From a virus, in IMG/VR virus record IMGVR_UViG_3300047311_000323, positions 1-64,000 of that record: a stretch of DNA of 64,000 nt; one strand, written 5' to 3'. Numbering within the stretch: position 1 is the stretch's first letter; every line of letters begins with the position of its first letter. Shown here piece after piece: positions 3,001-62,955 of the stretch. The position numbers and the translations under genes are program-made. The notes under the pieces were generated by a model that was given only the letters and a program-made list of their open reading frames with translations, did not search any database and was not told where the DNA came from.

Positions 3001-6000
3001 TCTGTATGGGTCAATAGCATAACCATCTCTAGTAATAGTGAATGTTAAAGAGGCGTCGTTATCTATTCCATTCCACTGTGGTACAACCCAGCTTTCAAAT
3101 GTTCCCTCTTCTAGTCTTAGATTCGAATTGACAGGCAATGTAATAGTTTGATCTGGTTGGTCAACTAGAACGCCATTACCATAGTGAGCTGGTAGAAGCT
3201 GGAAGCTTCCAGTAGTATCTACACCAATAGGGAACAGTACGCTACTTCCTAGTGACCATATTTCAAATGCTGATTCGATAATTTCTGGTTCTACGTGAGT
3301 GATTATCTGACCAATGTTTTTAATAGCAGCAACCGTTGGACCTTGGATAAAAGAAGATAGGGCTGCTTGTAGAGCCTCACGGTATCTTTCTCTTTCTAGA
3401 CTCAAATCGAAAGTTGCTAGATCTGGAACATTAACTAACGTTCCAAAATTCTTTAGAAGCGCATCACGGAGAGCACCGACCTTGTAAGAAACATAGTAGT
3501 TGGTTCCAGTAGGTAGTGTTAAGTTTTTACGGAAGTCGATGACGTTATCACCATACTCATAGCTGACTAAGATTTCATCTGCTACATATGTATAGTCAAC
3601 AAAGAAGTCTCCCTTATTGTAATCAACAATGACTCTTTGTAGAGGAACAATGGTGAACGAGTATGTTACGTCACATAGATCACCAACTTGCGGAGCGCCA
3701 ATACCTGGTAGGACTAATTTTAATGGATTGCCTGGGACAATAGTACCAGAACCATTCCACAAAGATTGTGAGTCAGAAATTCTAGTTACACTGAATGTGT
3801 AAATGATTCCCGGTGAGAGATACGGGATATTCTCATTAAGAGTAATGAAATAGTTTGAACCGTCAAACTGAACGCTTTCAAATGACTGCTTGTTAATAGA
3901 TCCGACAGTGATGTTGAAGTTGCTACTAGTACTTACAACTCCAAAATTGATTGGGTTGCTACTGTTGGTTAGGTCATTAAACTCATAAACGCTTCTAACA
4001 AATTTGACAGCATTAGTTACTCCGGCAACGAATGTTGATTGAACAAAAGCACCAACTTGGTTCTGGAAAATTTGGTAAGGTGAAGACTCTACACCATTTA
4101 AGAATGCTTCGTCTGAGATATCTAGACCATCTGGAACAATTTCACCTTCACCGAATGAAGTATAAGAGAATTGCTTGTTCTTAGGGTTCAGAACACTGAT
4201 GCGATAGTAGATATCATCCACGCTAACAACATGTGGGAAATCTGGGACTATGCTGTTTTTCTTGTAGGTAACTGTACCAATATTGTCATCTTGTGTTGCA
4301 GAGACTGCGACATATACAACGCCATGCTGGTAGTCAACAATATACTCTCCAACCGAACTTAATCTATCTACATTGGTTGACGTATTGAATTCCTGATTAA
4401 ACCATATCTCTCTGACAAATATGTTGCCATTAGAGAATACTAAACTAGTGTTAAAGGAAGTTCCTAGACCATCTTGTGAAGAATTGACGACGGTATTATT
4501 TGCAAGAAAAATTGCGAACAATCTCAAATTGCTAGAATTGGCAGTGGTAGTATTGATGCCCAGAAGCTCATTAGTAACTGTGAAAAATGTGGAATTTTCA
4601 CCAGTCTCCTGAAGAACTCTTGGAGGGCTATTAAACCTAAAGTAAACTTGGTTATTGTTCCATCTATCTAATAGGTAGATTTCACCGGATGTCTCATTAA
4701 AAATCTGGAAGACATTAGTGATTGGCGAATTAAGAGTGGTTAATGAATTGAGAGCATTAAGTCTATTTCCAACTCTTTCATTAATAGATTCGATATGCGA
4801 ATCAGCAACATAATCTACGCCTGGGATTAGAACTTGTTCATAGTTGAATGAAATAATGCCTGGTTGGGTTACTAAGTTACCTAGTGGTAGAGCAACCAAC
4901 TCTAATAGGTCACTATCGTAAACATAGTCTATTTCTGGAGTGAATGTAAACTTGTAGTAGTATGTAGCTAATGGTGGTGAAGGGCCAGTACCATCATTAA
5001 GAGAGTCTGCGCCATATACATAGACTGTTCCAGTTGAGTAGTCTATCGAGTATACGCCTGGGAAAGAAGGTGGGGCGCTAAGACTAAATGGAATCTCAGT
5101 AATAAATGCCGGGTGAGGCATTCCAGTTCCAGAATTTGGATCGATAAAAACGACGCCACTAACCAATGGGGTATTGTTGCTAGCATCTGTGATTGGTGCG
5201 TGCTTCAATGCAAATATGTTGATGATAGGTGGGAGCACCTCTCTAACAGATTGTAGAGTCGCGAATGTATTTACAGTAGATGGATCAACTTGAATACCTA
5301 AACCTTTGTATTCGTATTCAACAACGATATGGAAGATTTGGTCTAGCGAAAATTTAGGATCACTTAGAATTACTTCATTGATTTTAACTTGGTTATTCTC
5401 AAGTAGCAAATAGCTAGAAGCAAAATCTTGGTCGAAAGTTGAATTGAGTAGCTGGTATCCTAGTCTGGATATTTCGTATTCAAAAACCGGGTCTGGAGTC
5501 AATAGTGTAAAAGTAATACTATTTACTCTGGTAACCGGATTATTACTTAGGTTGAAAGTTAGGGTATTGATATTGAATGTACCCAGACTATCATTCGAAG
5601 ATGGCTTAATGATCTCTGTAACCAATTGTCTTTGCAGAGTTACTGGATAAGAGGGGAAACTATCAAATACGAACGTAGTTGCAACTGGGGCTGCCGTTGG
5701 ACCAAAACCAACTCTAAATACATCATAGACCGCTTCTTCATATAGTCTTTCAAATGGAGTTTCGCTTTTGGTATGGATTTCATCAGCTACAGTAAAGGAT
5801 AGGTAATTCTCATTGCCGAGCTGTCTAATATCATAGAGTACTCTAGAAAAATTGACAGCAATAGACTGTATGTATTTGTTTACAACTGTGGTGGTATCGG
5901 TGGCGTTGTAAATATTGTTGCGGTAAAATGACTGCAGGTAGTCGTTAACTGGATTGTCTGGTGGAAGTGGTCCAGTAATGAGTAGCCTATTAGAGACCCC

Positions 6001-6288: not shown

Positions 6289-9200
6289 CTGGTTTCAGTG
6301 TTTATATTGATGCTGTTAGGCTGGAAATATTGATCTTCATTGGCGACTATGCTTAGTACTTGACCAGGAAGTCCAGTTACGTTGAAGAAAAGTATTCTAG
6401 CCCTATCTATACCCTGGACGCCCTGAGCTATATTGATTAATGTAATCTGGTCTATTGTTTGACCTAGCTGCGTGGTAGTCAAAGCTGCTACTAGTTGGTT
6501 ACGTAGATTCTGGAGAACCGTAGCAGAGGTGGTTAAGAAGTTCTGATTGACAACTACGTTCATAGTTAGGTCAATTAGAATCAACTTAGCAGATCTGGCT
6601 AGAACGTCCGCATTGATTGGACGGCTATTTTCTATTGTAAAGGTGGTATCTGATATCAACTTATTGTAGTTGTACTGTATCAGGATTCTTTCATTCTGCT
6701 TAGGGGCAAGATAGTTATAGAAGGATGTATATCTGGCACCAATACTTGGTCTGGTAAATGAAGTTGCACTAAACTTAGTAGCTTGAGAAGCCTGGAAACC
6801 GCTGTTTACATAGATTTGGTTAATCAAAGCGAATTTCTTATTTGTATATAACGAGCCAATTCTAGTATATGATAGATTTTCAGAGTCATTATCAACTGTG
6901 TAATAGAAAGTTACCCTAATCAAATCTCCTACAGTTGGTAGGTTATTGGTTGAGCCAGTTAATGTATTATTGGTTGTTGCTGGGAGAACAAAGTCCAGGT
7001 TCGGCAATAGCGGGTTGTAACGCATAGTGTCTGAGAAATACAGGTTAATAGCGATAGTAGTACCAACTACATCAAAAGTGGCCAATACGCTTGTAACAAT
7101 GTCACTTCCGGTGGAGAAGGTTTCTACCTTTTCGGCCTTGACAATCTTAGCAATTTTTATATTGGTCGGAATGCTGGCGGTGGAGCTGAGGCCCAAAGCT
7201 TTGCGCAAAGCTTCTTGTAAATTCTGCTGGAGGCCCGTGCTGGTCGCTGTGAAGATGACATCGCTAGCAAGGGTCATTGAGGTGCCGATAACGGACACTA
7301 CACCTACGTTGACAATCTGATCTACGATAGTTCCTACAATGCGAGTTGGAGCCTTTCGAAGATTTCCAAAGTTGAAGAACATAACATAAACCAAATCACC
7401 AACTGCCGCATTAACGGTTTTAGGAATGATTAGCCTGTTGTTAGCTTGGTCTATAGTACCAGTATAATTCCAAAGCTCTTGACCGTCTAGTACTCTAACT
7501 ACTGAAATCTGGTTAGCTGTAAGATGGTCTAGCGTATTGGTGATAGTGATGTTGTTAGTATTGACATTGTAGCCAATAATATCAAAGTAACCGTCATTAT
7601 TTGGGGCAATGGCGCCTGTAATTTTAATGCGCTTATTGGTTAGATCTGGCAGACTAGAAAAGTTAACTGACAAGCTGTTCAAATTGGCTTGGGTAGCGCT
7701 GATTGGTGTTATGTATCCGTCCAATACATTGAACAGTACAGTATCACTATTGTGCTCTACTACCTCAAAATTTAAACCGCTAGCCTGAGCTGTAAACTCA
7801 ATCAATGGGATAGTGAAGTTCTTGCTAATAGGATCTATTTCTAAATTATCAATACGTGTTCTAATGATTTGATTGCTGAAACTAAATGGCTGAAAGCGTC
7901 TGATATCATCGGCATAGTAAATAACCAATACACGATCGGCGGCAACAGGAACATTGAATCCAGTTAAAATAAGCTGGTAATTACCATCCACGCCCGTAAT
8001 AACTTGGCCTTCATGATCGGCATTCCATAGCTCTTTACCATCTGACAGTCTAACAACAGAAAGAACTTTATCGGCAAATAAGCTGTAATCAGATGCTGAC
8101 AAATCTAGTTCAACGAAAAATTGGTTGCTCAGATTAACTTGAACAATTTGATTTTCTCGTCTTGATACATTCACAACGCTGAAGTTGTTGAATCCACTAT
8201 TGTCAGATAGCGTATATCCATTTCCAGTACGGCTAGTTGGAAGAGAAATGATTGCTGAAGAGAACAAATCATTGACGTTGGCAATATACGTAACTCTTAG
8301 ACTTACTCTATCAGAAGACGATCCAACTAAGATAGATGGAATAGTAACTTGTGTTCCGTTGCTGCTGCCCTGTAAAGTTCCTGATTGGAAAATATTGGCA
8401 CTATTCATATAGACAGATACTCTGTCACCGATCTGAGCCGGGGTATCTGTTGGGAGTATGATGGTAGTTGTAAATACGATGTTGATACCAATAACTCCAG
8501 CTAAATTTGAGAAGGATCCATCGCCCTGTGCAGTCTTGTAAACTTCAGTGCCGTTATTCTTCCAGACGATAGAGTCCACCGATTCGGTAGCAATCTCCAA
8601 ATTGTTAACTACAACAGAAAGTCTGTTAACAAATGCTCCAGATTGAATTAGTTGGACGTAGCCATCTACTTGTAAATAGCTGTCTGTTGATACAATGGTA
8701 TCTACTGGGTGGGTTGTGGTTCCAATATAGAAGTTGTTGCCTGAGCTTAGGGCGAAATCGACCAACTCGGTTTTAATAGCGGATGGATATCCCCAGTCAA
8801 TGCTGTCGGTAACCGTTCTTGGATTTTGGGTGTTTAGCAATCCGTCAAAATCGGAGTACCTATCATAGTCTACTATCCAAGTATAGTCTACCTGTAAAAT
8901 ATCACTAGGTGAAGGTAGGGTGTTACCGGAAACCTTGATTCTTCCAGTATTATTGAATGGAGATGTGGCATCCAAATTTTGATTGGTAATTAGATATCTT
9001 TCACCGGTATTAGTATTGAAAACTCTAGTAACGTTGGTTGCTGGAGTGTGTAGCAATTGAATAATAGTACGGTCACTGGTAACCATACTGTTTTCATTTG
9101 TAACACCCAATTGCTGTTGAACGTCAGTTACTTGTTGTACTTCAGTGAACGTGGTTGGATCCTGGCCGTTGGCCTGGCCCTTGATTAAGTCTTCTTGGAA

Positions 9201-10379
9201 TGAAATCTGATTGTTCTTCCAAACAAACGTATCGAAACCAAATGGGCTACCACCATATACGCTAGTGTCTTTAACTAATAAGTAGTTACCAGAACCTCGA
9301 CCATATTGATCGATAGTGAATGGAATGAAGTTTGAACCGCTGATAGAGCCGGTCACTTGGGTTAGCGAGCTAACTGGTTGGGCTGGCAACTGACCGTTCT
9401 TGATATCCTTTACTCTCTTTTGAGAGATACTGAGGTTAGCATCAGCTACAATCTGTCCCAATACGAAATTGTTTTTGGAGCTGGTAGGATCGTTATTGTT
9501 ACTTTTATCCTGATAGATGAAGGTGTCAGTATTAGAAACATCATTAGTTCCCAGTACCACTACGTCTACCTTGCCTCCAGAACCCTCTGAGACAACCGTT
9601 AGAACGCCATTGATGGTTTCTGTTACCGTGCCATCACGAGTCATTAGCGGGTCGCCTGGCTCAATTACAACGGCATCCTGTACGCCAGTCACACTTAGGG
9701 CTGCGTTTAGGTACCCTAGCTGGGTTCCTACGCTGGAACCACTGAAGGTAGATAGAATACGGTTTCTAAAGGCCGCGTCCGTTTCTTGGTCAGTACCACC
9801 TGCAAAGCTAGCAACGTTAGTTACGTTACTGATGCCAGGAATACTGATTTTAGACAGGGTGTATTGGCCAATGTTACCAGATGAGCCTGGAGAAGATGCA
9901 ATTACTGTAACCTCAACCGCATATTGGTCTGTAATACCGGCAAAGGCTAACTGGGCCGAAAATTTGGTAGCCGTGGAGCGATAGAAATTGATATTGGATG
10001 GTACAATGGAGATACCAGTGGTAACACTAAATCCTAGACCGCCTGAAGTAAAGATTGAGGCGCCTTTGTTAACGTTGATAGTAGCATTCAAAGAAGAGAA
10101 TGTTAGAAGGGCCACTCCAGTAGATGGGGTGGACTGCTTTCTAATTAGTCCGAAGTTCTTTCCCAGTTTATCTAAGTCGGTACCAATAGACAATCTTAGT
10201 GATTGCTTATTGGAGACTCCCTGTAGCTCATCATAAAGAAGAGATAATTGGGATGATGGCCCCTCAATAAACAAATCTCTAGCCACTGTACCTGGTTTGG
10301 TATCCAAGTCTGGTTGAGCCGTTCTGAAAAAGTCTATCAGGTTGGCAATGATTTCATTGACTGACCTTATTGTGACCAT
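6285..10379 (-). CDS. Baseplate J-like wedge protein (T4 gp6/P2 gpJ family), enlarged
   Basis: N-terminal DTKPGTVARDLFIE, LDKLGKNFGLIRKQ and GGTDQETDAAFRNRIL...GT are baseplate J motifs; follows a gp25-like gene. Confidence 0.85.
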   Translation of the reverse strand: MVTIRSVNEIIANLIDFFRTAQPDLDTKPGTVARDLFIEGPSSQLSLLYDELQGVSNKQSLRLSIGTDLDKLGKNFGLIRKQSTPSTGVALLTFSSLNATINVNKGASIFTSGGLGFSVTTGISIVPSNINFYRSTATKFSAQLAFAGITDQYAVEVTVIASSPGSSGNIGQYTLSKISIPGISNVTNVASFAGGTDQETDAAFRNRILSTFSGSSVGTQLGYLNAALSVTGVQDAVVIEPGDPLMTRDGTVTETINGVLTVVSEGSGGKVDVVVLGTNDVSNTDTFIYQDKSNNNDPTSSKNNFVLGQIVADANLSISQKRVKDIKNGQLPAQPVSSLTQVTGSISGSNFIPFTIDQYGRGSGNYLLVKDTSVYGGSPFGFDTFVWKNNQISFQEDLIKGQANGQDPTTFTEVQQVTDVQQQLGVTNENSMVTSDRTIIQLLHTPATNVTRVFNTNTGERYLITNQNLDATSPFNNTGRIKVSGNTLPSPSDILQVDYTWIVDYDRYSDFDGLLNTQNPRTVTDSIDWGYPSAIKTELVDFALSSGNNFYIGTTTHPVDTIVSTDSYLQVDGYVQLIQSGAFVNRLSVVVNNLEIATESVDSIVWKNNGTEVYKTAQGDGSFSNLAGVIGINIVFTTTIILPTDTPAQIGDRVSVYMNSANIFQSGTLQGSSNGTQVTIPSILVGSSSDRVSLRVTYIANVNDLFSSAIISLPTSRTGNGYTLSDNSGFNNFSVVNVSRRENQIVQVNLSNQFFVELDLSASDYSLFADKVLSVVRLSDGKELWNADHEGQVITGVDGNYQLILTGFNVPVAADRVLVIYYADDIRRFQPFSFSNQIIRTRIDNLEIDPISKNFTIPLIEFTAQASGLNFEVVEHNSDTVLFNVLDGYITPISATQANLNSLSVNFSSLPDLTNKRIKITGAIAPNNDGYFDIIGYNVNTNNITITNTLDHLTANQISVVRVLDGQELWNYTGTIDQANNRLIIPKTVNAAVGDLVYVMFFNFGNLRKAPTRIVGTIVDQIVNVGVVSVIGTSMTLASDVIFTATSTGLQQNLQEALRKALGLSSTASIPTNIKIAKIVKAEKVETFSTGSDIVTSVLATFDVVGTTIAINLYFSDTMRYNPLLPNLDFVLPATTNNTLTGSTNNLPTVGDLIRVTFYYTVDNDSENLSYTRIGSLYTNKKFALINQIYVNSGFQASQATKFSATSFTRPSIGARYTSFYNYLAPKQNERILIQYNYNKLISDTTFTIENSRPINADVLARSAKLILIDLTMNVVVNQNFLTTSATVLQNLRNQLVAALTTTQLGQTIDQITLINIAQGVQGIDRARILFFNVTGLPGQVLSIVANEDQYFQPNSININTETR

Positions 10380-10388
10380 GAGCTATCC

Positions 10389-10820
10389 TTAGATGGTTGA
10401 AATGCTAAAAGCAGTAGTGATTGGTTTGAACCCTTTAGTCACACAACTTATTTTAACGTTGAAGAGTCTTGGATCAAATGCACTTCTCAATACAGATATA
10501 CCTGTTATTGCTGCAAGTTGTTCATCTGCGGTCATTTTTTGTTGAGATTTAACTTGTAGAGTTTGTAAATACTGTAAGTTGGTCAAGCAACTGTTTAATT
10601 GTGATTTGGCTATTTGTACTACTACGCTAGTCTGTTGAGGGTTTCCGATTACTGATCTCGACAAAAAAGAACCATATGACGGATGGATAGGGTTACCACC
10701 TACATCCGTCAGGCAAATCTTGAGAATGTCTTGGATAAGCTTTTCGCTATCCTCTACTTTTTGAAGGTCACCTTGGTTGACTACCAAGTCACCGTTAACG
10801 ATTTTTAGGTCAAAAGACAT
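10389..10820 (-). CDS. Baseplate wedge/sheath initiator, gp25-like
   Basis: DLKIVNGDLV...KLIQDILKICLTDVGGNPIHPSYGSFL fits the gp25/GPW family; start moved to the ATG at 10820 (SD GGTGGAG upstream). Confidence 0.8.
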   Translation of the reverse strand: MSFDLKIVNGDLVVNQGDLQKVEDSEKLIQDILKICLTDVGGNPIHPSYGSFLSRSVIGNPQQTSVVVQIAKSQLNSCLTNLQYLQTLQVKSQQKMTADEQLAAITGISVLRSAFDPRLFNVKISCVTKGFKPITTAFSISTI

Positions 10821-10836
10821 GCCGGCTCCACCTTGT

Positions 10837-41141: not shown

Positions 41142-41666
41142 TTAAACTTTTGCCATCAAGGTCTCTTTCTTTTCTTCGACCTCTTTTTTACTTTCAACTT
41201 CGTGGTGTTCGAGCAAATCATCAACATATTGTTCAGCTTCTTGATCACCAAACTGGTCGGCAATGTACTGTACCTGGTTCTGGAATCCTTCTTGCTCATA
41301 TGGGTTGTCCAAATAGCTTCCGTCATCCGAACTCTTGGTAGCTTTAGTGCCGGTCGTCTGCTGTAGCCAGTGAGTCATCTCATGGACGCCATAGGAAAAG
41401 TCCTTGAACCAATCACCATCCGTCAATAGCTTGTAATTGTAAATAATAACACCATGATCTGTCTTGGCAGATACATCTAAGTTGCCAAACATCATTGGAA
41501 TATAATCGATTTCAGAAATATCCACTTTATACTCGTCAAACATCTTCTGGACTACCTCATTTTGCTTGAGGTACTCGCGCATTTTCTTAATCATCCTATT
41601 TAAAGACTTGTAAGGCAGCTTTTTGATTTGAGAAAGTGGAATTTTCTCTTCACCTTTGGAACTCAT
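41142..41666 (-). CDS. HExxH zinc metallopeptidase-like protein
   Basis: VHEMTHWLQQ plus downstream YLDNPYEQEG (candidate third Zn ligand Glu). Confidence 0.65.
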   Translation of the reverse strand: MSSKGEEKIPLSQIKKLPYKSLNRMIKKMREYLKQNEVVQKMFDEYKVDISEIDYIPMMFGNLDVSAKTDHGVIIYNYKLLTDGDWFKDFSYGVHEMTHWLQQTTGTKATKSSDDGSYLDNPYEQEGFQNQVQYIADQFGDQEAEQYVDDLLEHHEVESKKEVEEKKETLMAKV

Positions 41667-41671
41667 ACTAG

Positions 41672-41691
41672 ATATGGATAAATATCCATAT
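41672..41691. promoter_or_regulatory. Palindrome between divergent peptidase and 2H genes (operator-like)
   Basis: ATATGGATA-AA-TATCCATAT perfect 9-bp inverted repeat in a 37-nt divergent gap. Confidence 0.4.
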
Positions 41692-41703
41692 TATCGAGGA
41701 CAC

Positions 41704-42321
41704 ATGGCTTTTTTGGGAATCAGAATACCACACGAAACGGCACGCTTACTAGCTCAGATTGATGTACCAGGCGAGAAAATCGCTACATCTGAGATGCACA
41801 TCACCCTTTTGCACTTTCAAAGCGAATGGCCTATCTCCGAATTGGCCAAATCATTGGAAGCTACCTACGAGGTGGTTTCTAAGTTCCATCCATTCCTGGC
41901 TAAGATAAATAAGGTTAGCTCGTTCCCTAAAAATCCAGAAGGTGTACTACCCGTTATTGGCAAAGTAGATTCTGATGACTTGATGGAGCTACGTAAAAAG
42001 TTAGCCGAGAATTTTGATGATGAGAACATCGACTTCTCTAAAACGCACAAAGATTTCAAGCCACACGTAACTCTAGCGTACGCAGAAGAAAAACCGGATG
42101 AAGAAAAGTTCCATCCGGTTGAATTCGTGGTTTCAGAGATTGTATTGTGGGGTGGCGACCACGGGGACGATCGAATTTTTGTTACGTTCCCGCTAGCAGG
42201 CCCAAAGATGGATAAGAATGCTATCTTACTCAAGAAGATTGAAATCTTCGAGAAGATTGCCGGCAATCCTTTACAGGATTACTTGACTCCATCTAAAGAG
42301 CGCAGAAAAACTGAGCGTTAA
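41704..42321 (+). CDS. 2H phosphoesterase (LigT/ThpR 2'-5' RNA ligase superfamily)
   Basis: Two HxT motifs, MHITL and PHVTL; start moved to ATG 41704 after SD GAGGA. Confidence 0.85.
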   Translation: MAFLGIRIPHETARLLAQIDVPGEKIATSEMHITLLHFQSEWPISELAKSLEATYEVVSKFHPFLAKINKVSSFPKNPEGVLPVIGKVDSDDLMELRKKLAENFDDENIDFSKTHKDFKPHVTLAYAEEKPDEEKFHPVEFVVSEIVLWGGDHGDDRIFVTFPLAGPKMDKNAILLKKIEIFEKIAGNPLQDYLTPSKERRKTER

Positions 42322-58647: not shown

Positions 58648-59358
58648 TTATCCCTCTTTATGAAATCGGTCCCTAATGGTTATCGTGATGGTTCTTTCTA
58701 CATCTGGATTATCAGCGCTTGCTTTACACCCATCAAATAGTTTCTCTATCAACGAGTCATAACCTTTAGTGGCGACATCGCTCTTAGTGATTTCTAAAGC
58801 TTGCTTAACATCTTTACGAGTAAGATCTTCGTCCTTGGCAAGGATAACTCTAGTTAAATCGGTTTCACTCATTCTTGTCAAATCATCGTGAGTTAAACGA
58901 TATCTAACATTCAACAACTCTTCTAAATAATCAAAACTACCAACACCAGGCTGGTTCTGTGCTGCAAACTCTCCGTCATCAATACCGGTACGCATACCCT
59001 TATCAACTGCTGTCAATAGAATGCGAGCATTGCTGTCCTGCCATTCATGTTCTCTACCGTAAACATTCTTGAGGGCATTAAGTGAGTTACGTAATTTGGC
59101 AAAGTTCTTGACTCGTTGTGCTAGTCCCTCAGAAAGAAACATCTCACTACGGTTATAGTTCTGAAGACCCCTACGTGGATTGTATTCAGTTTCCTGATCA
59201 ATACGACGAGTGTCAAAAGCCATTTTGGTAAAACCTTGGCCAGAAGAAACGGATGCCAAAGCAACTTTTCTAAGTTGCCTGGATTGCTTTCTAGAACTCA
59301 CATTCTGTGAACCCCTAGAAATCAGATTGTAAAGCTCGGTAACCTCTAACAAACTCAT
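58648..59358 (-). CDS. Hypothetical protein
   Basis: 236 aa charged helical ORF with SD GAGGA. Confidence 0.65.
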   Translation of the reverse strand: MSLLEVTELYNLISRGSQNVSSRKQSRQLRKVALASVSSGQGFTKMAFDTRRIDQETEYNPRRGLQNYNRSEMFLSEGLAQRVKNFAKLRNSLNALKNVYGREHEWQDSNARILLTAVDKGMRTGIDDGEFAAQNQPGVGSFDYLEELLNVRYRLTHDDLTRMSETDLTRVILAKDEDLTRKDVKQALEITKSDVATKGYDSLIEKLFDGCKASADNPDVERTITITIRDRFHKEG

Positions 59359-59403: not shown

Positions 59404-59443
59404 ACACACCGCGCGCCTTGACACGTAATTTTTAAGTTTTAGA

Positions 59444-60676
59444 GTGCCCAGCATGGAACATCTACCTATTTCTACACACCTTATTCACCCACAAGCAATT
59501 GAGGTATGTCGAATCCTAAATCAAAACAACTATCAAGCCTTTATTGTGGGCGGATGTGTGCGAGACCTTCTCCTGGGGCAGACGCCCAAGGACTGGGACA
59601 TCACGACCGATGCTTCTCCTCAGAGAATCATGGAGATTTTCCCCAAGACTATTCCAACTGGCCTGCAACATGGTACGGTAACGGTCTGTATGGGCGAAGG
59701 TGTCGAAAACCACTTCGAGGTTACTACGTTCAGAATCGAAGGCGCATATTCAGACGGTCGTAGGCCCGATGAAGTCACTTTCGTAATGAATGTAGAGCAA
59801 GACTTGGCAAGGCGAGACTTAACCATCAATGCCATTGCTTATGACCCGCTTACCAATGTATGTGTAGACCCTTTTCACGGAATTGAAGACCTCCAACAAG
59901 GTCTAATTAGGGCAGTAGGTAATCCTGCTATCCGATTCCAAGAGGACGGCTTGCGCATCATGCGAGTGGCTCGATTTGCGGCTAGATTTGGCTACCAAGT
60001 AGAAGAAGAAACCATAAAGGGCATGTCAGAGAACCTAGAGACCTTGAAAAGGGTCTCAAAGGAGCGAATTCGAGATGAATTATGCAAGACTCTGATGGCT
60101 AGTAACCCAAATATAGGGTTGCGAATTCTATCTTCAACTGGGGCATTAAAAATAGCTGCTCCATCCTTGCGATTTCACCCTGAAGCTCGTGATTTCCCTT
60201 GGGCCGGTGAGTTAGAGACAAGAATAGCTGTTCTTTACCTTCATCGTCTCCAGGAAGTAGAGGCTGAACTAGAAAGTTTGAAATTCTCTAACCGAGAAAT
60301 CAAGAAAGTTTTACTGCTTCAGGAGCTGTTTGGACGCTGGTGGCGAGCGTCGCATTGGGGCGATTCCGAAGCCTATAAGGTGTTTATAAGCATCATCAAG
60401 AACCGATCCATAGACGACTACCCCTCTACCTTACAGCAATTTATAAGGTTGGGAGAGTCGCTTGGTTACCCCGTTCAAGAATGGCTTAATCTTTATCAAA
60501 ATGAAGTCGTTTTTGCTCGTAAAGAGATGCTGATAAATGGTAATGATTTGATGGAGGCCGGCATGCCTGCTGGTCCTAAATTGAAAATAGCTTTGGATAA
60601 GTGCTATAATGAAATTTTGCTTCATCCCGAGCATAATACCAAAGCTTACTTGCTAGAAGTAGCTAAGCGAGCTTAA
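59444..60676 (+). CDS. cca: CCA-adding tRNA nucleotidyltransferase (class II)
   Basis: VGGCVRDLLLG..PKDWDITT, EVTTFR, DLARRDLTINAIA, RFQEDGLRIMRVARFAARFG; start GTG 59444 or ATG 59453. Confidence 0.92.
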   Translation: MPSMEHLPISTHLIHPQAIEVCRILNQNNYQAFIVGGCVRDLLLGQTPKDWDITTDASPQRIMEIFPKTIPTGLQHGTVTVCMGEGVENHFEVTTFRIEGAYSDGRRPDEVTFVMNVEQDLARRDLTINAIAYDPLTNVCVDPFHGIEDLQQGLIRAVGNPAIRFQEDGLRIMRVARFAARFGYQVEEETIKGMSENLETLKRVSKERIRDELCKTLMASNPNIGLRILSSTGALKIAAPSLRFHPEARDFPWAGELETRIAVLYLHRLQEVEAELESLKFSNREIKKVLLLQELFGRWWRASHWGDSEAYKVFISIIKNRSIDDYPSTLQQFIRLGESLGYPVQEWLNLYQNEVVFARKEMLINGNDLMEAGMPAGPKLKIALDKCYNEILLHPEHNTKAYLLEVAKRA

Positions 60677-61224
60677 TCGTTCTTTGGGGCCTTGGATTTT
60701 ACATCTAGGGCCTTAAAGAGTTTATTATGAGTGCTTCTCAAAAAGTCTTTCTGAGTATCAGATAGCTTGTCTTTATCATTACGCAGTTGCTCATGAATTT
60801 GATGAGATAGTTCTTGAGAGTCTTTAAAGTCTAATGGCATCAACTGCAATTCGAATTGGACGCCATCAATATCTAGATTAACATCAGTTACTCCAGGATA
60901 TTCAAGTCCGCAATCATTGGTATCCTTTTTTTTAGAGTCTTTTACTTGGCCTTTGAATACTTTCTTAAGCAAGTCCACAACTTCTTTAGGATTGTATTCT
61001 TGAGAGAAGAAAAGCCTACCTCTGGCCAAATCTGGAAGGATGCCGGGATCGGATTCACGATCTCGCAGCATTTTCTTTTTGATGCTGAGGTATGGCTTTA
61101 AGTTGGTTTCCAACAGAAAATCATGTGGTGGCAAGTCTGCAAGCTGAGACTGCACGTGCTGCATAGCCTTGTTCAAACTGGGCATGAGGTGCATGTATTG
61201 CTTTCGAAGTTTCTTGGAGTCCAT
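60673..61224 (-). CDS. RelA/SpoT-like (small alarmone synthetase fold) nucleotidyltransferase, divergent
   Basis: K-PYL-S-IKK-K-ML-R, D-LA-R-G-R, G.EYPG and FELQLMP align by eye with SAS motifs; start moved to ATG 61224 so it does not overlap the divergent HNH gene. Confidence 0.6.
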   Translation of the reverse strand: MDSKKLRKQYMHLMPSLNKAMQHVQSQLADLPPHDFLLETNLKPYLSIKKKMLRDRESDPGILPDLARGRLFFSQEYNPKEVVDLLKKVFKGQVKDSKKKDTNDCGLEYPGVTDVNLDIDGVQFELQLMPLDFKDSQELSHQIHEQLRNDKDKLSDTQKDFLRSTHNKLFKALDVKSKAPKND

Positions 61225-61258
61225 GATTATATGCGGGGTTATAGACAGGCGAGGTTTC

Positions 61259-61936
61259 ATGACTAAATTACGAGATTTAACGGGCCAAAGATTCGGAAGA
61301 TTAATTGTTTTGGAGCGAGGTGAGAATCTATCACGCCCACCTTGTAAATCACATCCTAATGGAAAATCTAGAATCACATGGGTTTGTCAATGTGATTGCG
61401 GTACGATCAAAACAATTTCTGCTGAAAAGTTGTATCACAAAAAGAGCCCAACACGTTCTTGTGGTTGTTTAAACACTGACACTAATAGGGCTAAAGCTTA
61501 CTTAATGCATAAAGCCAATACTAAGTATCATCCTAGTATTGGAACAGCGCGCGGGATCTGGGCTAAAATATACAAAGATGGCCCCGATGGCCTTTCTTTT
61601 GAAGAGTTCTATGATCTTTCTCAAAAACCATGTCATTACTGTGGCTCTAAACCAAACAATTCTCAAAACAGTCCTATGAGTGATAAGTTAGCCTCAGCCT
61701 TTGCTAAAGAAAATGGCACATTTGTATATAATGGATTAGATAGAATAGATAGCACCAAACATCATACATTAGATAATGTAGTACCATGTTGTAAATGGTG
61801 CAATTATGCAAAAAGAGAGCGTACAACAGAAGAATTCAAAGCTTGGGCTAAACGATTACATGACAATTTGTTCATACAAAAAGAAACGGACTCTAATTGC
61901 TTAGAGTCCGTTTCGGAACTTGCTTTAGTCAGTTAA
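61259..61936 (+). CDS. Free-standing HNH homing endonuclease
   Basis: DLTGQRFGRL, WVCQCDCG, TRSCGC, CHYCG, GLDRIDSTKHHTLDNVVPCCKWCN.AK; start moved to ATG 61259 (SD GAGG). Confidence 0.85.
   Translation: MTKLRDLTGQRFGRLIVLERGENLSRPPCKSHPNGKSRITWVCQCDCGTIKTISAEKLYHKKSPTRSCGCLNTDTNRAKAYLMHKANTKYHPSIGTARGIWAKIYKDGPDGLSFEEFYDLSQKPCHYCGSKPNNSQNSPMSDKLASAFAKENGTFVYNGLDRIDSTKHHTLDNVVPCCKWCNYAKRERTTEEFKAWAKRLHDNLFIQKETDSNCLESVSELALVS
61883..61914 (-). terminator. Intrinsic terminator of the major capsid gene
   Basis: GAAACGGACTCTAA-GCAA-TTAGAGTCCGTTTC then TTTTT on the minus strand, ~30 nt after the capsid stop. Confidence 0.8.
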
Positions 61937-61941
61937 GCTTA

Positions 61942-62955
61942 TTAGGCTCCGACGACTACGCTCTTTCTACCAGCGGCACAGCCTCTTGGGTTAACAATGG
62001 CGATACCAATGATTTCGCTAACTACCCAACCCAACTTTAGTTGTTTTGGTTCATCGGCAGGGAGTACTTCAATATCCTGACGGATTGGCATTACTCCTAC
62101 AAATTCTGGATCGGCTACACCGTAGATGGTTCCAGGTGGAACAATCTTGCTGACCATGATGTCAGTACCCCAGATGTGGGCGTATAGACCGGTCTGTAGA
62201 ACTTCTCTCATAGTTACTGGATCGAAGTCACCACCACCAACACCTTGTCCACCACCAGAACCCCACTTGAGGATGTCAGTGAACTCGTTGATGTTCATGA
62301 AGTACTTAGTAGTTACTAAGTCCCAACGATCAATCTGTTGCTTGATTTCGACCAAGTCTCTCTTTAGAAGACCTGCATCGGCGATGTCAGTGAGAGTGTT
62401 CTCAACTGAGGCAGCGGCATCCAAGGCGGCAAAGATGTTTGCATCTTCTTGAGCCATGATTTCCTGACGTGCCTTTTGAACAGCTCTGTCAATGACGTTG
62501 AATCTACGACGCTTGACTTCAGCGATACGAACCGTTGGGTTCGCGTAGATTTCAAACTCTGGAACAACTACACGGTCACCGAATACACGGGACTCTGGAC
62601 CAGTACCGTTGGAAGAGATAACAACTGCGGCAACGTCGATATCTCTATCGTAAGTTGGAATTGCTCCCTGTGGTAGTGGGTCAACAACCAAGGCACGACG
62701 AGCGATACCATGGTAATCGAGGTTTCTACGGATTGGGTTTGCCATAGCCTGAGCTAGAGCAATCTTTCCGTCTTGAGTCATGATTGCGCGAGTGATCAAT
62801 TCATCACGCTTCTCATCGCTCAATGCTGGTTGACCAGCTAGTCCTTGGTTTGCAGGGACATTCTCTTCGAGAATGGCTGCGTACTTTACCAAGGCTTGCA
62901 ATGCATCCTTGAAAGATGAGGCGTTAATTTCGCCCTTGCCGCTAAACATATTCAT
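61942..62955 (-). CDS. Major capsid protein (HK97 fold, encapsulin-like family)
   Basis: LAQAMANPIRRNLDY.GIARR.L.VDPLPQGA, PEFEI.ANPT.RI.EVK.RRFNVIDR; strong SD AGGAG; follows a decoration-like gene and precedes a strong terminator. Confidence 0.85.
   Translation of the reverse strand: MNMFSGKGEINASSFKDALQALVKYAAILEENVPANQGLAGQPALSDEKRDELITRAIMTQDGKIALAQAMANPIRRNLDYHGIARRALVVDPLPQGAIPTYDRDIDVAAVVISSNGTGPESRVFGDRVVVPEFEIYANPTVRIAEVKRRRFNVIDRAVQKARQEIMAQEDANIFAALDAAASVENTLTDIADAGLLKRDLVEIKQQIDRWDLVTTKYFMNINEFTDILKWGSGGGQGVGGGDFDPVTMREVLQTGLYAHIWGTDIMVSKIVPPGTIYGVADPEFVGVMPIRQDIEVLPADEPKQLKLGWVVSEIIGIAIVNPRGCAAGRKSVVVGA

Follow-up and report, generated by a model that had tools for sequence, protein, structure and literature searches.

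The adjacency of a CCA-adding tRNA nucleotidyltransferase gene (cca) and a gene for a small alarmone synthetase (SAS)-like protein in a soil megaphage is a property of a cargo hotspot, which holds the two as independent optional genes and not as a two-gene system. Both lie in a stretch of 64,000 nucleotides (the window; positions 1 to 64,000 of IMG/VR record IMGVR_UViG_3300047311_000323) that forms part of a source record of 198,396 bp, 45% complete by CheckV. An earlier note on this DNA had joined the two genes into a candidate tRNA 3′-end control or repair module, with the caveat that their adjacency could be coincidental; the module is not supported by the analysis, and the caveat proved the better reading by a locus table, a capsid-gene tree, whole records and allele mosaicism. 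Judged from profile and predicted fold, we are confident that the SAS-like protein of 183 residues belongs to the RelA/SpoT synthetase superfamily and has the SAS fold over its whole length, and its sequence conservation indicates that it is a real, selected and probably active pyrophosphokinase of the SAS type. As to its activity, we slightly favour, at somewhat less than an even chance, the reading that this enzyme would transfer pyrophosphate to a free purine nucleotide, with cca as separate cargo.

The slot that holds the two genes is bounded by the capsid gene and a conserved late-block gene, and in the window it contains three genes (HNH, SAS-like and cca):

61942-62955, minus strand: major capsid protein gene (PHROG 2522, 2.9e-81), upstream anchor of the variable slot.
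61259-61936, plus strand: HNH homing-endonuclease gene (PHROG 1035/374), an insert that separates the capsid-gene terminator from the SAS-like gene.
60673-61224, minus strand: SAS-like gene, 183 residues, divergent RelA/SpoT-synthetase fold; optional cargo that shares the strand of the late head genes.
60673-60676, no strand assigned: TTAA, overlap of the two convergent stop codons, read from the sequence.
59453-60676, plus strand: cca, class II CCA-adding tRNA nucleotidyltransferase of 407 residues; optional cargo antisense to the late head genes.
58648-59358, minus strand: conserved late-block gene of 236 residues, downstream anchor, present after the slot in 51/51 loci used.

The shared stop described in the earlier note is thus an overlap of four nucleotides, and the corresponding convergent overlap in relatives measures 6-23 nt. 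The 236-residue anchor gene has no Pfam or PHROG match.

In a first sample of six long contigs, found through the SAS-like gene, convergent overlap with cca was present in five and cca was missing in one. Because these contigs had been chosen on SAS, sampling was repeated on the capsid protein, which yielded 80 IMG/VR loci, all with capsid proteins 91-100% identical, and 51 distinct intervals bounded by the capsid and 236-residue genes. Here, SAS and cca occurred together in 14/51 loci, SAS only in 5/51, cca only in 21/51 and neither gene in 11/51, so that cca is found in 35/51 loci overall. The association between the two genes is null (odds ratio 1.47, Fisher p 0.76, 51 loci), with cca in 14/19 SAS-bearing loci (74%) versus 21/32 SAS-less loci (66%), and co-occurrence is therefore not above the base rate. 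On a maximum-likelihood tree of capsid-gene DNA the state changes number at least 8 for SAS and at least 7 for cca. In 4/5 well-supported independent SAS contrasts cca was the same on both sides, giving no sign of coupling at low power.

Whole records were searched for both genes, with positive controls recovered in 4/4 cases, and hold them as follows (completeness by CheckV):

G009, 481 kb, 100% complete: both genes.
G007, 448 kb, 100% complete: cca only.
G005, 447 kb, 100% complete: neither gene.
G006, 452 kb with terminal repeats, 100% complete: neither gene.
G001, 327 kb, 76% complete: SAS present, no full-length cca found.

The alleles of the two genes also differ in ancestry. In locus L011 the capsid protein is 99.7% identical to that of the window, SAS 91% and the product of the 236-residue gene 97%, whereas cca is only 64% identical; judged from such sequences, SAS and cca alleles recombine apart and have separate histories. 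The SAS remnants that stand beside cca in loci L042 and L046 likewise count towards independence.

These results bear directly on the idea that the SAS-like protein and cca form a functional pair, in which one would modify and the other rebuild the tRNA 3′ end, or in which cca would serve as antidote. Such a pair would be consistent with the persistence of the convergent overlap in 14/19 SAS-bearing loci, down to 41% SAS identity, and with loci L042 and L046, where an intact cca stands beside C-terminal remnants of the SAS gene only. In the closest sub-clade the terminator-like hairpin of cca lies inside the 3′ end of the SAS gene, and the relative in Sinorhizobium phage phiN3 likewise has a cca within 4 kb. 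However, cca is as common without SAS as with it, the capsid-gene tree shows no correlation between gain or loss of one gene and that of the other, and one whole record carries SAS without full-length cca (G001) while another carries cca without SAS (G007). In addition, the two genes have differing allele histories, lie on opposite strands and are probably expressed at different times, and the SAS position beside cca is taken elsewhere by unrelated genes. Finally, the cca product lacks an HD phosphohydrolase domain in a Pfam search and, we infer, has no obvious way to take off a 3′-pyrophosphate. We consider a functional pair improbable, and our literature search found no paper on a phage SAS-cca pair.

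Thirty homologues of 173-198 residues share the N-terminus MDxKKLRKQY, which fixes the start of the SAS-like gene at 61224. In the curated Pfam model RelA_SpoT (PF04607) the window protein scores E 0.01 and 16.5 bits, under the 27-bit gathering threshold, whereas 19/31 family members match the model (best 6.6e-8); a six-frame search of the genome with PF04607 gave no match, and the gene is accordingly strongly divergent. Membership of the superfamily is therefore drawn from profile and fold, not from the curated cut-off. A family-profile search of the Protein Data Bank (PDB) ranks RelQ/RelP-type enzymes first. The AlphaFold2 model of the 183-residue protein has a pLDDT of 92.5 and a pTM of 0.86, and its top Foldseek matches are RelP/RelQ/SAS1 (E 3e-6), followed by long Rel enzymes, Tas1 and FaRel2, with probability 1.00. 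Structural alignment with VIA-align gave Z scores of 15.3 for RelQ (root-mean-square deviation 2.9, 169/183 residues) and 13.7 for RelP, compared with 12.1 for an exported SAS, 11.3 for Tas1 and 11.0 and 10.6 for CapRel. Among viral models (BFVD) the best match was the RelA/SpoT protein of Sinorhizobium phage phiN3 (TM 0.71), and the next were several phage proteins of >1000 residues bearing the domain. Thus, the synthetase-type fold claimed in the earlier note, a nucleotidyltransferase-type arrangement of a five-stranded sheet framed by helices, was recovered by profile search, Foldseek and VIA-align.

Compared with close relatives, the SAS gene has a ratio of nonsynonymous to synonymous substitution rates (dN/dS) of 0.09-0.12, and the capsid gene one of 0.03-0.04; the SAS gene is therefore functional, although less constrained than the capsid gene. 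The family is small: its profile matches only 226 of 1.84 billion representatives at E ≤0.001, and a compact core comprises about a dozen clusters at 50% identity, all solo proteins of 174-193 residues. In close members, which all measure 174-198 residues, the domain stands alone, with no fusion or targeting peptide seen. A second tier of the clade is found in cultured Sinorhizobium, Paraglaciecola, Desulfovibrio and Variovorax phages, and its members match the family profile at E 1e-20 to 1e-13. Searches of a cultured-phage collection by blastn (DNA) and tblastn (protein) found no close relative, and the PADLOC defence models and NCBIfam gave no match to the window protein, a result compatible with distant kinship. 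A broader alignment (A2) was tried as a locus-finding profile and dropped as too diverse. The superfamily is already known; the divergent phage subfamily is new.

The motifs of the window protein are K43xxxS47xxxK51xxR54, D65xxR68xR70, Y109 and E125xQ127, all of which the earlier note had pointed out. Residue roles were assigned by mapping to FaRel2 (PMC11782079) and RelP (PMC7983052). The donor-site residues of FaRel2 are R64, K66, S70, K74, R77, D90, G93, R95, Y128, E145 and Q147 (PMC11782079), and their counterparts in the window protein are, in the same order, N41, K43, S47, K51, R54, D65, R68, R70, Y109, E125 and Q127. With identities of 20-54% across both tiers of the clade, K43, K51, D65, Y109 and E125 are invariant and S47, R68, G111 and Q127 near-invariant; R54 is not conserved in the family. 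The losses that the earlier note had listed are equally real. Enzymes of the superfamily normally sandwich the donor adenine between two arginines, one in RxKxxxS and one in DxxGxR. At the position of FaRel2 R64, the strand-1 arginine is replaced by N41, with R70 kept; the loop histidine is replaced by D114, a loss confined to the sub-clade of the window, most of the family retaining the histidine; and ELQLMP stands in place of EIQIRT. A further signature of the clade is R68, which occupies the usual glycine of DxxGxR (FaRel2 G93) and may replace the lost strand-1 arginine in stacking the donor adenine.

These losses, together with a Pfam score under the cut-off and the position of the gene among head genes, could be explained if the protein had kept the fold without being a pyrophosphokinase, and served instead as a pseudoenzyme that binds nucleotides or RNA, or in the head block as a decoy or structural component. 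Yet K43, S47, K51, D65, Y109, E125 and Q127 are invariant or nearly so at 20-50% identity, a pattern that catalysis predicts and a scaffold does not, and R68 offers a plausible stand-in for the missing arginine. A non-catalytic role thus appears very unlikely, and we retain an active pyrophosphokinase as the probable state of the protein.

Comparison with characterized enzymes places the protein nearest RelQ/SAS1 and RelP/SAS2 (PDB 5DEC, 5DED, 6EWZ, 6FGK, 2BE3). Like these, it is a single domain of about 190 residues whose fold is shared over the whole length, including an N-terminal helix and two C-terminal helices, and it has in common with them the acidic pair that binds Mg (Asp and Glu), a phosphate cradle made of Lys, Ser and Lys, the Tyr for stacking and the Gln. 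Identity to them is only 14-19%, and unlike them the protein is basic rather than acidic, phage-encoded and optional, lacks the strand-1 Arg, has an additional Arg in place of the glycine of DxxGxR and reads ELQxMP where they read EIQIRT. The toxic SAS enzymes (toxSAS; FaRel2 8PU4, CapRel 7ZTB/9ERV, PhRel, PhRel2) have the same catalytic fold (Foldseek FaRel2 E 1e-4) and a similarly basic character, and some are borne by phages or prophages. However, they are structurally further from the window protein than RelQ/RelP are; the window protein has neither an adjacent or fused antitoxin nor a pseudo-Zn-finger domain to match theirs, and its gene sits in a late gene block of lytic type and not in a defence island. 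The neighbours of SAS genes in the slot vary (homing endonucleases, unrelated ORFs, cca in 14/19 loci, or the next late gene), with no cognate antitoxin of the pseudo-Zn-finger, Panacea, SAH or another type among them. Polyvalent and MuF-fused RelA/SpoT modules (PMC5512222) are phage-borne too, and several of the BFVD matches of >1000 residues are proteins of this sort, whereas the window protein is a solo domain. By neighbours and domain content, the SAS-like gene thus does not appear to be a toxSAS module, and it is not a domain of a polyvalent protein.

The nearest annotated kin are a 'RelA/SpoT family protein' of Sinorhizobium phages phiN3, phiM12, phiM7 and phiM19 (gp279), Paraglaciecola GD virus 1 gp92 and PHROG 37685. 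Kin of the phiN3 type retain K43, S47, K51, D65, R68, Y109, E125 and Q127; they differ in having about 20-24% identity, a length of 230-260 residues with an N-terminal extension of 40-60 residues and an acidic tail, and a location among small genes of early type and not behind the capsid gene.

As acceptor of the transferred pyrophosphate, a free purine nucleotide is slightly favoured, with nearly even but not quite even probability, because RelQ and RelP are nearest by sequence and by structure, C-terminal helices included, and because RelA/SpoT domains of phages have earlier been read as alarmone-type effectors: those of polyvalent and MuF-fused virion proteins were proposed to enter together with the DNA and to set off an alarmone-like response (Iyer et al, 2017, PMC5512222).

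Several points weigh against this reading. According to Kurata et al, no clear sequence signature separates tRNA-using from nucleotide-using SAS enzymes, which makes the call of the acceptor weak, and neither that paper nor the mBio 2025 paper contains a sequence rule for tRNA versus nucleotide acceptors. The family is basic (median pI 9.05), and since charge is reversed in RelP/RelQ where FaRel2 binds tRNA (Kurata et al), this character favours RNA binding. The KKLRK patch, conserved at the N-terminus, is reminiscent of the anchor with which the N-terminal part of FaRel2 holds tRNA, and three other lineages have family members near tRNA or RNA-end genes. With the strand-1 Arg, the RT of EIQIRT and, in the sub-clade of the window, the loop His gone, activity or substrate may differ from those of every characterized enzyme. 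Moreover, the association test had modest power and sampled a single lineage, and the late timing of SAS is read from gene order.

Some of these points are what would be expected if the SAS-like enzyme, independently of cca, pyrophosphorylated the 3′-terminal adenosine of tRNAs, or of some tRNAs, in the manner of FaRel2, PhRel, PhRel2 and CapRel. Translation of the host or of a competitor would then be the target, and the 12 tRNAs of the phage or its tRNA-end enzymes would escape or compensate. tRNA-using toxSAS enzymes grip the acceptor stem with a basic patch, together with a helical anchor at the N-terminus (PMC11782079; Kurata et al), features that the basic family and its KKLRK patch resemble. 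In the genomes, the phiN3 relative has Pth at 1 kb, cca at 4 kb and Rnl1 at 10 kb, the member in locus L107 has polynucleotide kinase-phosphatase (PNKP) at 1 kb and Rnl1 at 3 kb, the relative in Paraglaciecola GD virus 1 (GD1) has a 2H RNA phosphodiesterase at 1 kb, and the genome of the window is itself rich in tRNA functions (12 tRNAs, Thg1-like and Pth2-like genes and, as a second CCA gene, one of mini type). In contrast, the closest structures are RelQ/RelP and not CapRel or FaRel2, PADLOC and NCBIfam are without a match, and no RNA-end genes adjoin the relatives in Desulfovibrio phage 7757 and a Variovorax phage, where RNase H and DnaJ-domain genes are found instead and cca is 25 kb off or absent. 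A late general block of tRNA charging would also hurt the phage, there is no conserved adjacent antidote gene, and an HD gene located in another part of the genome shows no co-variation with SAS. We regard a tRNA acceptor as possible, though clearly on the unlikely side; a thematic link of the SAS family to tRNA and RNA-end enzymes survives weakly.

The HD gene, which is amber-gated and lies next to suppressors, was considered as a partner of SAS, for example an alarmone hydrolase, and rejected: it has no Pfam HD match, it occurs in records G005 and G007, which lack SAS, and it was not found in G001, which carries SAS.

The identification of cca as a class II CCA-adding enzyme in the earlier note was borne out by domains and motifs. 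Three Pfam domains score above the cut-off, namely PolyA_pol (2.4e-38), PolyA_pol_RNAbd and tRNA_NucTran2_2, the set of Bacillus-type CCA-adding enzymes; residues 17-400 align over the full length with PDB 1MIV, the Geobacillus stearothermophilus enzyme (E 7e-55), an alignment in which the class II head-domain motifs (A-E: GGxVRD/DxD, RRD and EDxxR) are intact and the neck, body and tail domains are covered as well; and the protein matches the phage tRNA nucleotidyltransferases of PHROG 2244 (9e-67). Its true start is the ATG at 59453, which is conserved in 11 relatives, and not the GTG at 59444, 9 nt upstream; the highest identity to the cca product of the window among relatives is 69%. Set beside 1MIV and PHROG 2244, the protein itself is ordinary; unlike those enzymes, it is encoded antisense within a late head operon and is optional. 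A separate mini-CCA gene of 255-259 residues is found elsewhere in all five whole records (G009, G007, G005, G006 and G001).

Putative expression signals lie around the two genes:

59418-59445, plus strand: sigma-70-like promoter of cca (TTGACA, 16 nt, TAGAGT; 10/12 matches in a promoter scan).
60679-60721, plus strand: terminator-like hairpin for cca, just past the cca stop and within the last SAS codons.
61228-61233, minus strand: CATATA motif, 3 nt 5′ of the SAS start, left over from the TTTTCTGGCATATAGAT-ATG junction that is conserved in relatives.
61883-61914, minus strand: intrinsic terminator-like hairpin directly after the capsid gene, with a 14-bp stem, GCAA loop and T run.

The cca promoter ends 7 nt before the ATG, implying a very short leader or none. 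Its TTGACA box and spacing are kept in 10/11 relatives, whose cca proteins are just 53-69% identical, and this conservation suggests that a host-type promoter probably drives cca, with early expression predicted. The hairpin at the 3′ end of cca has a minimum free energy of −27.1 kcal/mol (z −5.3, terminator scan), and L011, L012 and L015 retain it through base changes that leave the pairing intact; at the same place L017 has a different strong hairpin, and more distant relatives have none.

An equivalent of the hairpin behind the capsid gene precedes the SAS gene in relatives. Where the HNH insert is absent, the capsid terminator is followed by the TTTTCTGGCATATAGAT-ATG junction, which leads straight into the SAS gene; this junction is conserved in a comparison of SAS upstream regions from 19 relatives (loci L001-L019), and no Shine-Dalgarno sequence accompanies it. 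The CATATA element may serve as an initiation or promoter signal particular to the phage or its host. A similar motif, GATATATA, has been reported before other genes of the genome. From this arrangement the SAS gene is probably read with the late head genes behind an attenuator, and hence late and at an attenuated level.

According to the model that we slightly favour, ATP-Mg would bind in a donor site that keeps the metal-binding carboxylates D65 and E125. Here, K43, S47 and K51 would hold the phosphates, Q127 would contact the base, and the clade-specific R68 on strand 2 would stand in for the strand-1 arginine. The β,γ-pyrophosphate would then be moved to the 3′-OH of a purine nucleoside stacked on Y109, and the (p)ppGpp- or (p)ppApp-like product would reprogram host physiology. 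The enzyme would be made late and at an attenuated level, whereas cca, antisense and under its own conserved host-type promoter, would be expressed early and would simply maintain the CCA ends of host and phage tRNAs.

A more speculative version, which we think doubtful, is that the protein is a late, possibly virion-delivered pyrophosphokinase with an acceptor undescribed for the fold or with selective tRNA targets. If so, the donor site, rebuilt by a shift of the arginine from strand 1 to strand 2, would characterize an enzyme class peculiar to phages. The phage would use the protein to switch translation or nucleotide pools of the host as the next infection begins, and early cca together with the phage tRNA set would restore what the phage needs. 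In the second tier, proteins P0059, P0060, P0063, P0064, P0067-P0069 and P0072 (alignment A2) share an N-terminal M-[KLI]-[TS]-F-x-E-[FY]-[LIV]-x-E and acidic C-terminal tails. We take this start to resemble the capsid-targeting peptide of T4 internal proteins. It hints at virion packaging of the second-tier relatives, and is a lead only for the window family, which is without the extension.

The slot lies in a lineage of roughly 450-kb soil megaphages, whose complete relatives (100%, CheckV) span 446-481 kb; in the window, the minus strand holds nearly all genes, very large structural proteins among them. The closest relatives, L011-L013, lack the HNH gene at this place, while others have LAGLIDADG or HNH genes here, and further cargo includes LAGLIDADG-methylase fusions and a DUF4379 protein. 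In L043 a 178-residue ORF without a family match (3674-4210, plus strand) is convergent with cca at the place of the SAS gene; it was ruled out as a hidden SAS by an hhalign probability of 0.1. In L086 a gene for a collagen-repeat/BclA-C-like protein (8089-9123, plus strand) is likewise convergent with cca, with a 3′-end overlap of ~80 nt. The capsid protein is 90-99.7% identical across the 80 metagenomic loci (IMG/VR), unusually frozen beside a highly mosaic slot whose neighbouring genes fall to 39-69% identity (loci L019-L103).

A 2H/LigT-type phosphoesterase gene lies antisense to structural genes at 41656-42321 of the window (plus strand; PF13563 4.5e-12, LigT_PEase 3.2e-9). The earlier note had proposed it as a further RNA-end repair component; the gene is real, but it is 17 kb away, and the anti-CBASS Acb1 family offers a weak alternative, which the gene matches below threshold (6.5e-5, 23 bits, cut-off 27). 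It could act in RNA-end healing or in cyclic-nucleotide counter-defence. The 12 tRNA genes of the genome cover all four Thr anticodons, the others being four Arg, two Glu and two amber-reading CUA genes. Together with the Thg1-like gene they were recorded at 144833-151836 and 197341-198396 of the source genome (G000) and at 10043-10831 (minus strand) of L009. The Thg1-like gene belongs to the tRNA-His guanylyltransferase family (PF04446 4.4e-18) and has a NadA-like ORF and an M23 peptidase gene nearby; the genome also holds the Pth2-like and mini-CCA genes.

Neighbours of more distant SAS relatives were recorded as well. In L107 (3966-4949, 6001-6576 and 9448-10698) the core member P0049, 31% identical to the window protein and in a different phage context, lies between genes for a T4-type PNKP and an Rnl1-type RNA ligase, the classic tRNA-repair pair. 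DnaJ-domain genes occur near the relatives in Variovorax phage V45v66 (L111 4697-5725, minus strand, directly adjacent) and Desulfovibrio phage 7757 (L110 7061-8134, plus strand, with one 151-residue ORF between).

Taken together, the analysis removes an attractive but unsupported story of toxin plus repair, and the approach behind it, in which loci are anchored on flanking core genes and tabulated by cargo state, can be reused for other claims drawn from adjacency. A cargo hotspot is documented directly behind the extremely conserved capsid gene of roughly 450-kb soil phages, and a compact, well-folding phage subfamily of RelA/SpoT type with a rearranged ATP site is now defined. Cultured phages with second-tier members open to direct test the question of whether phages produce alarmones or alter tRNA ends to their own advantage.

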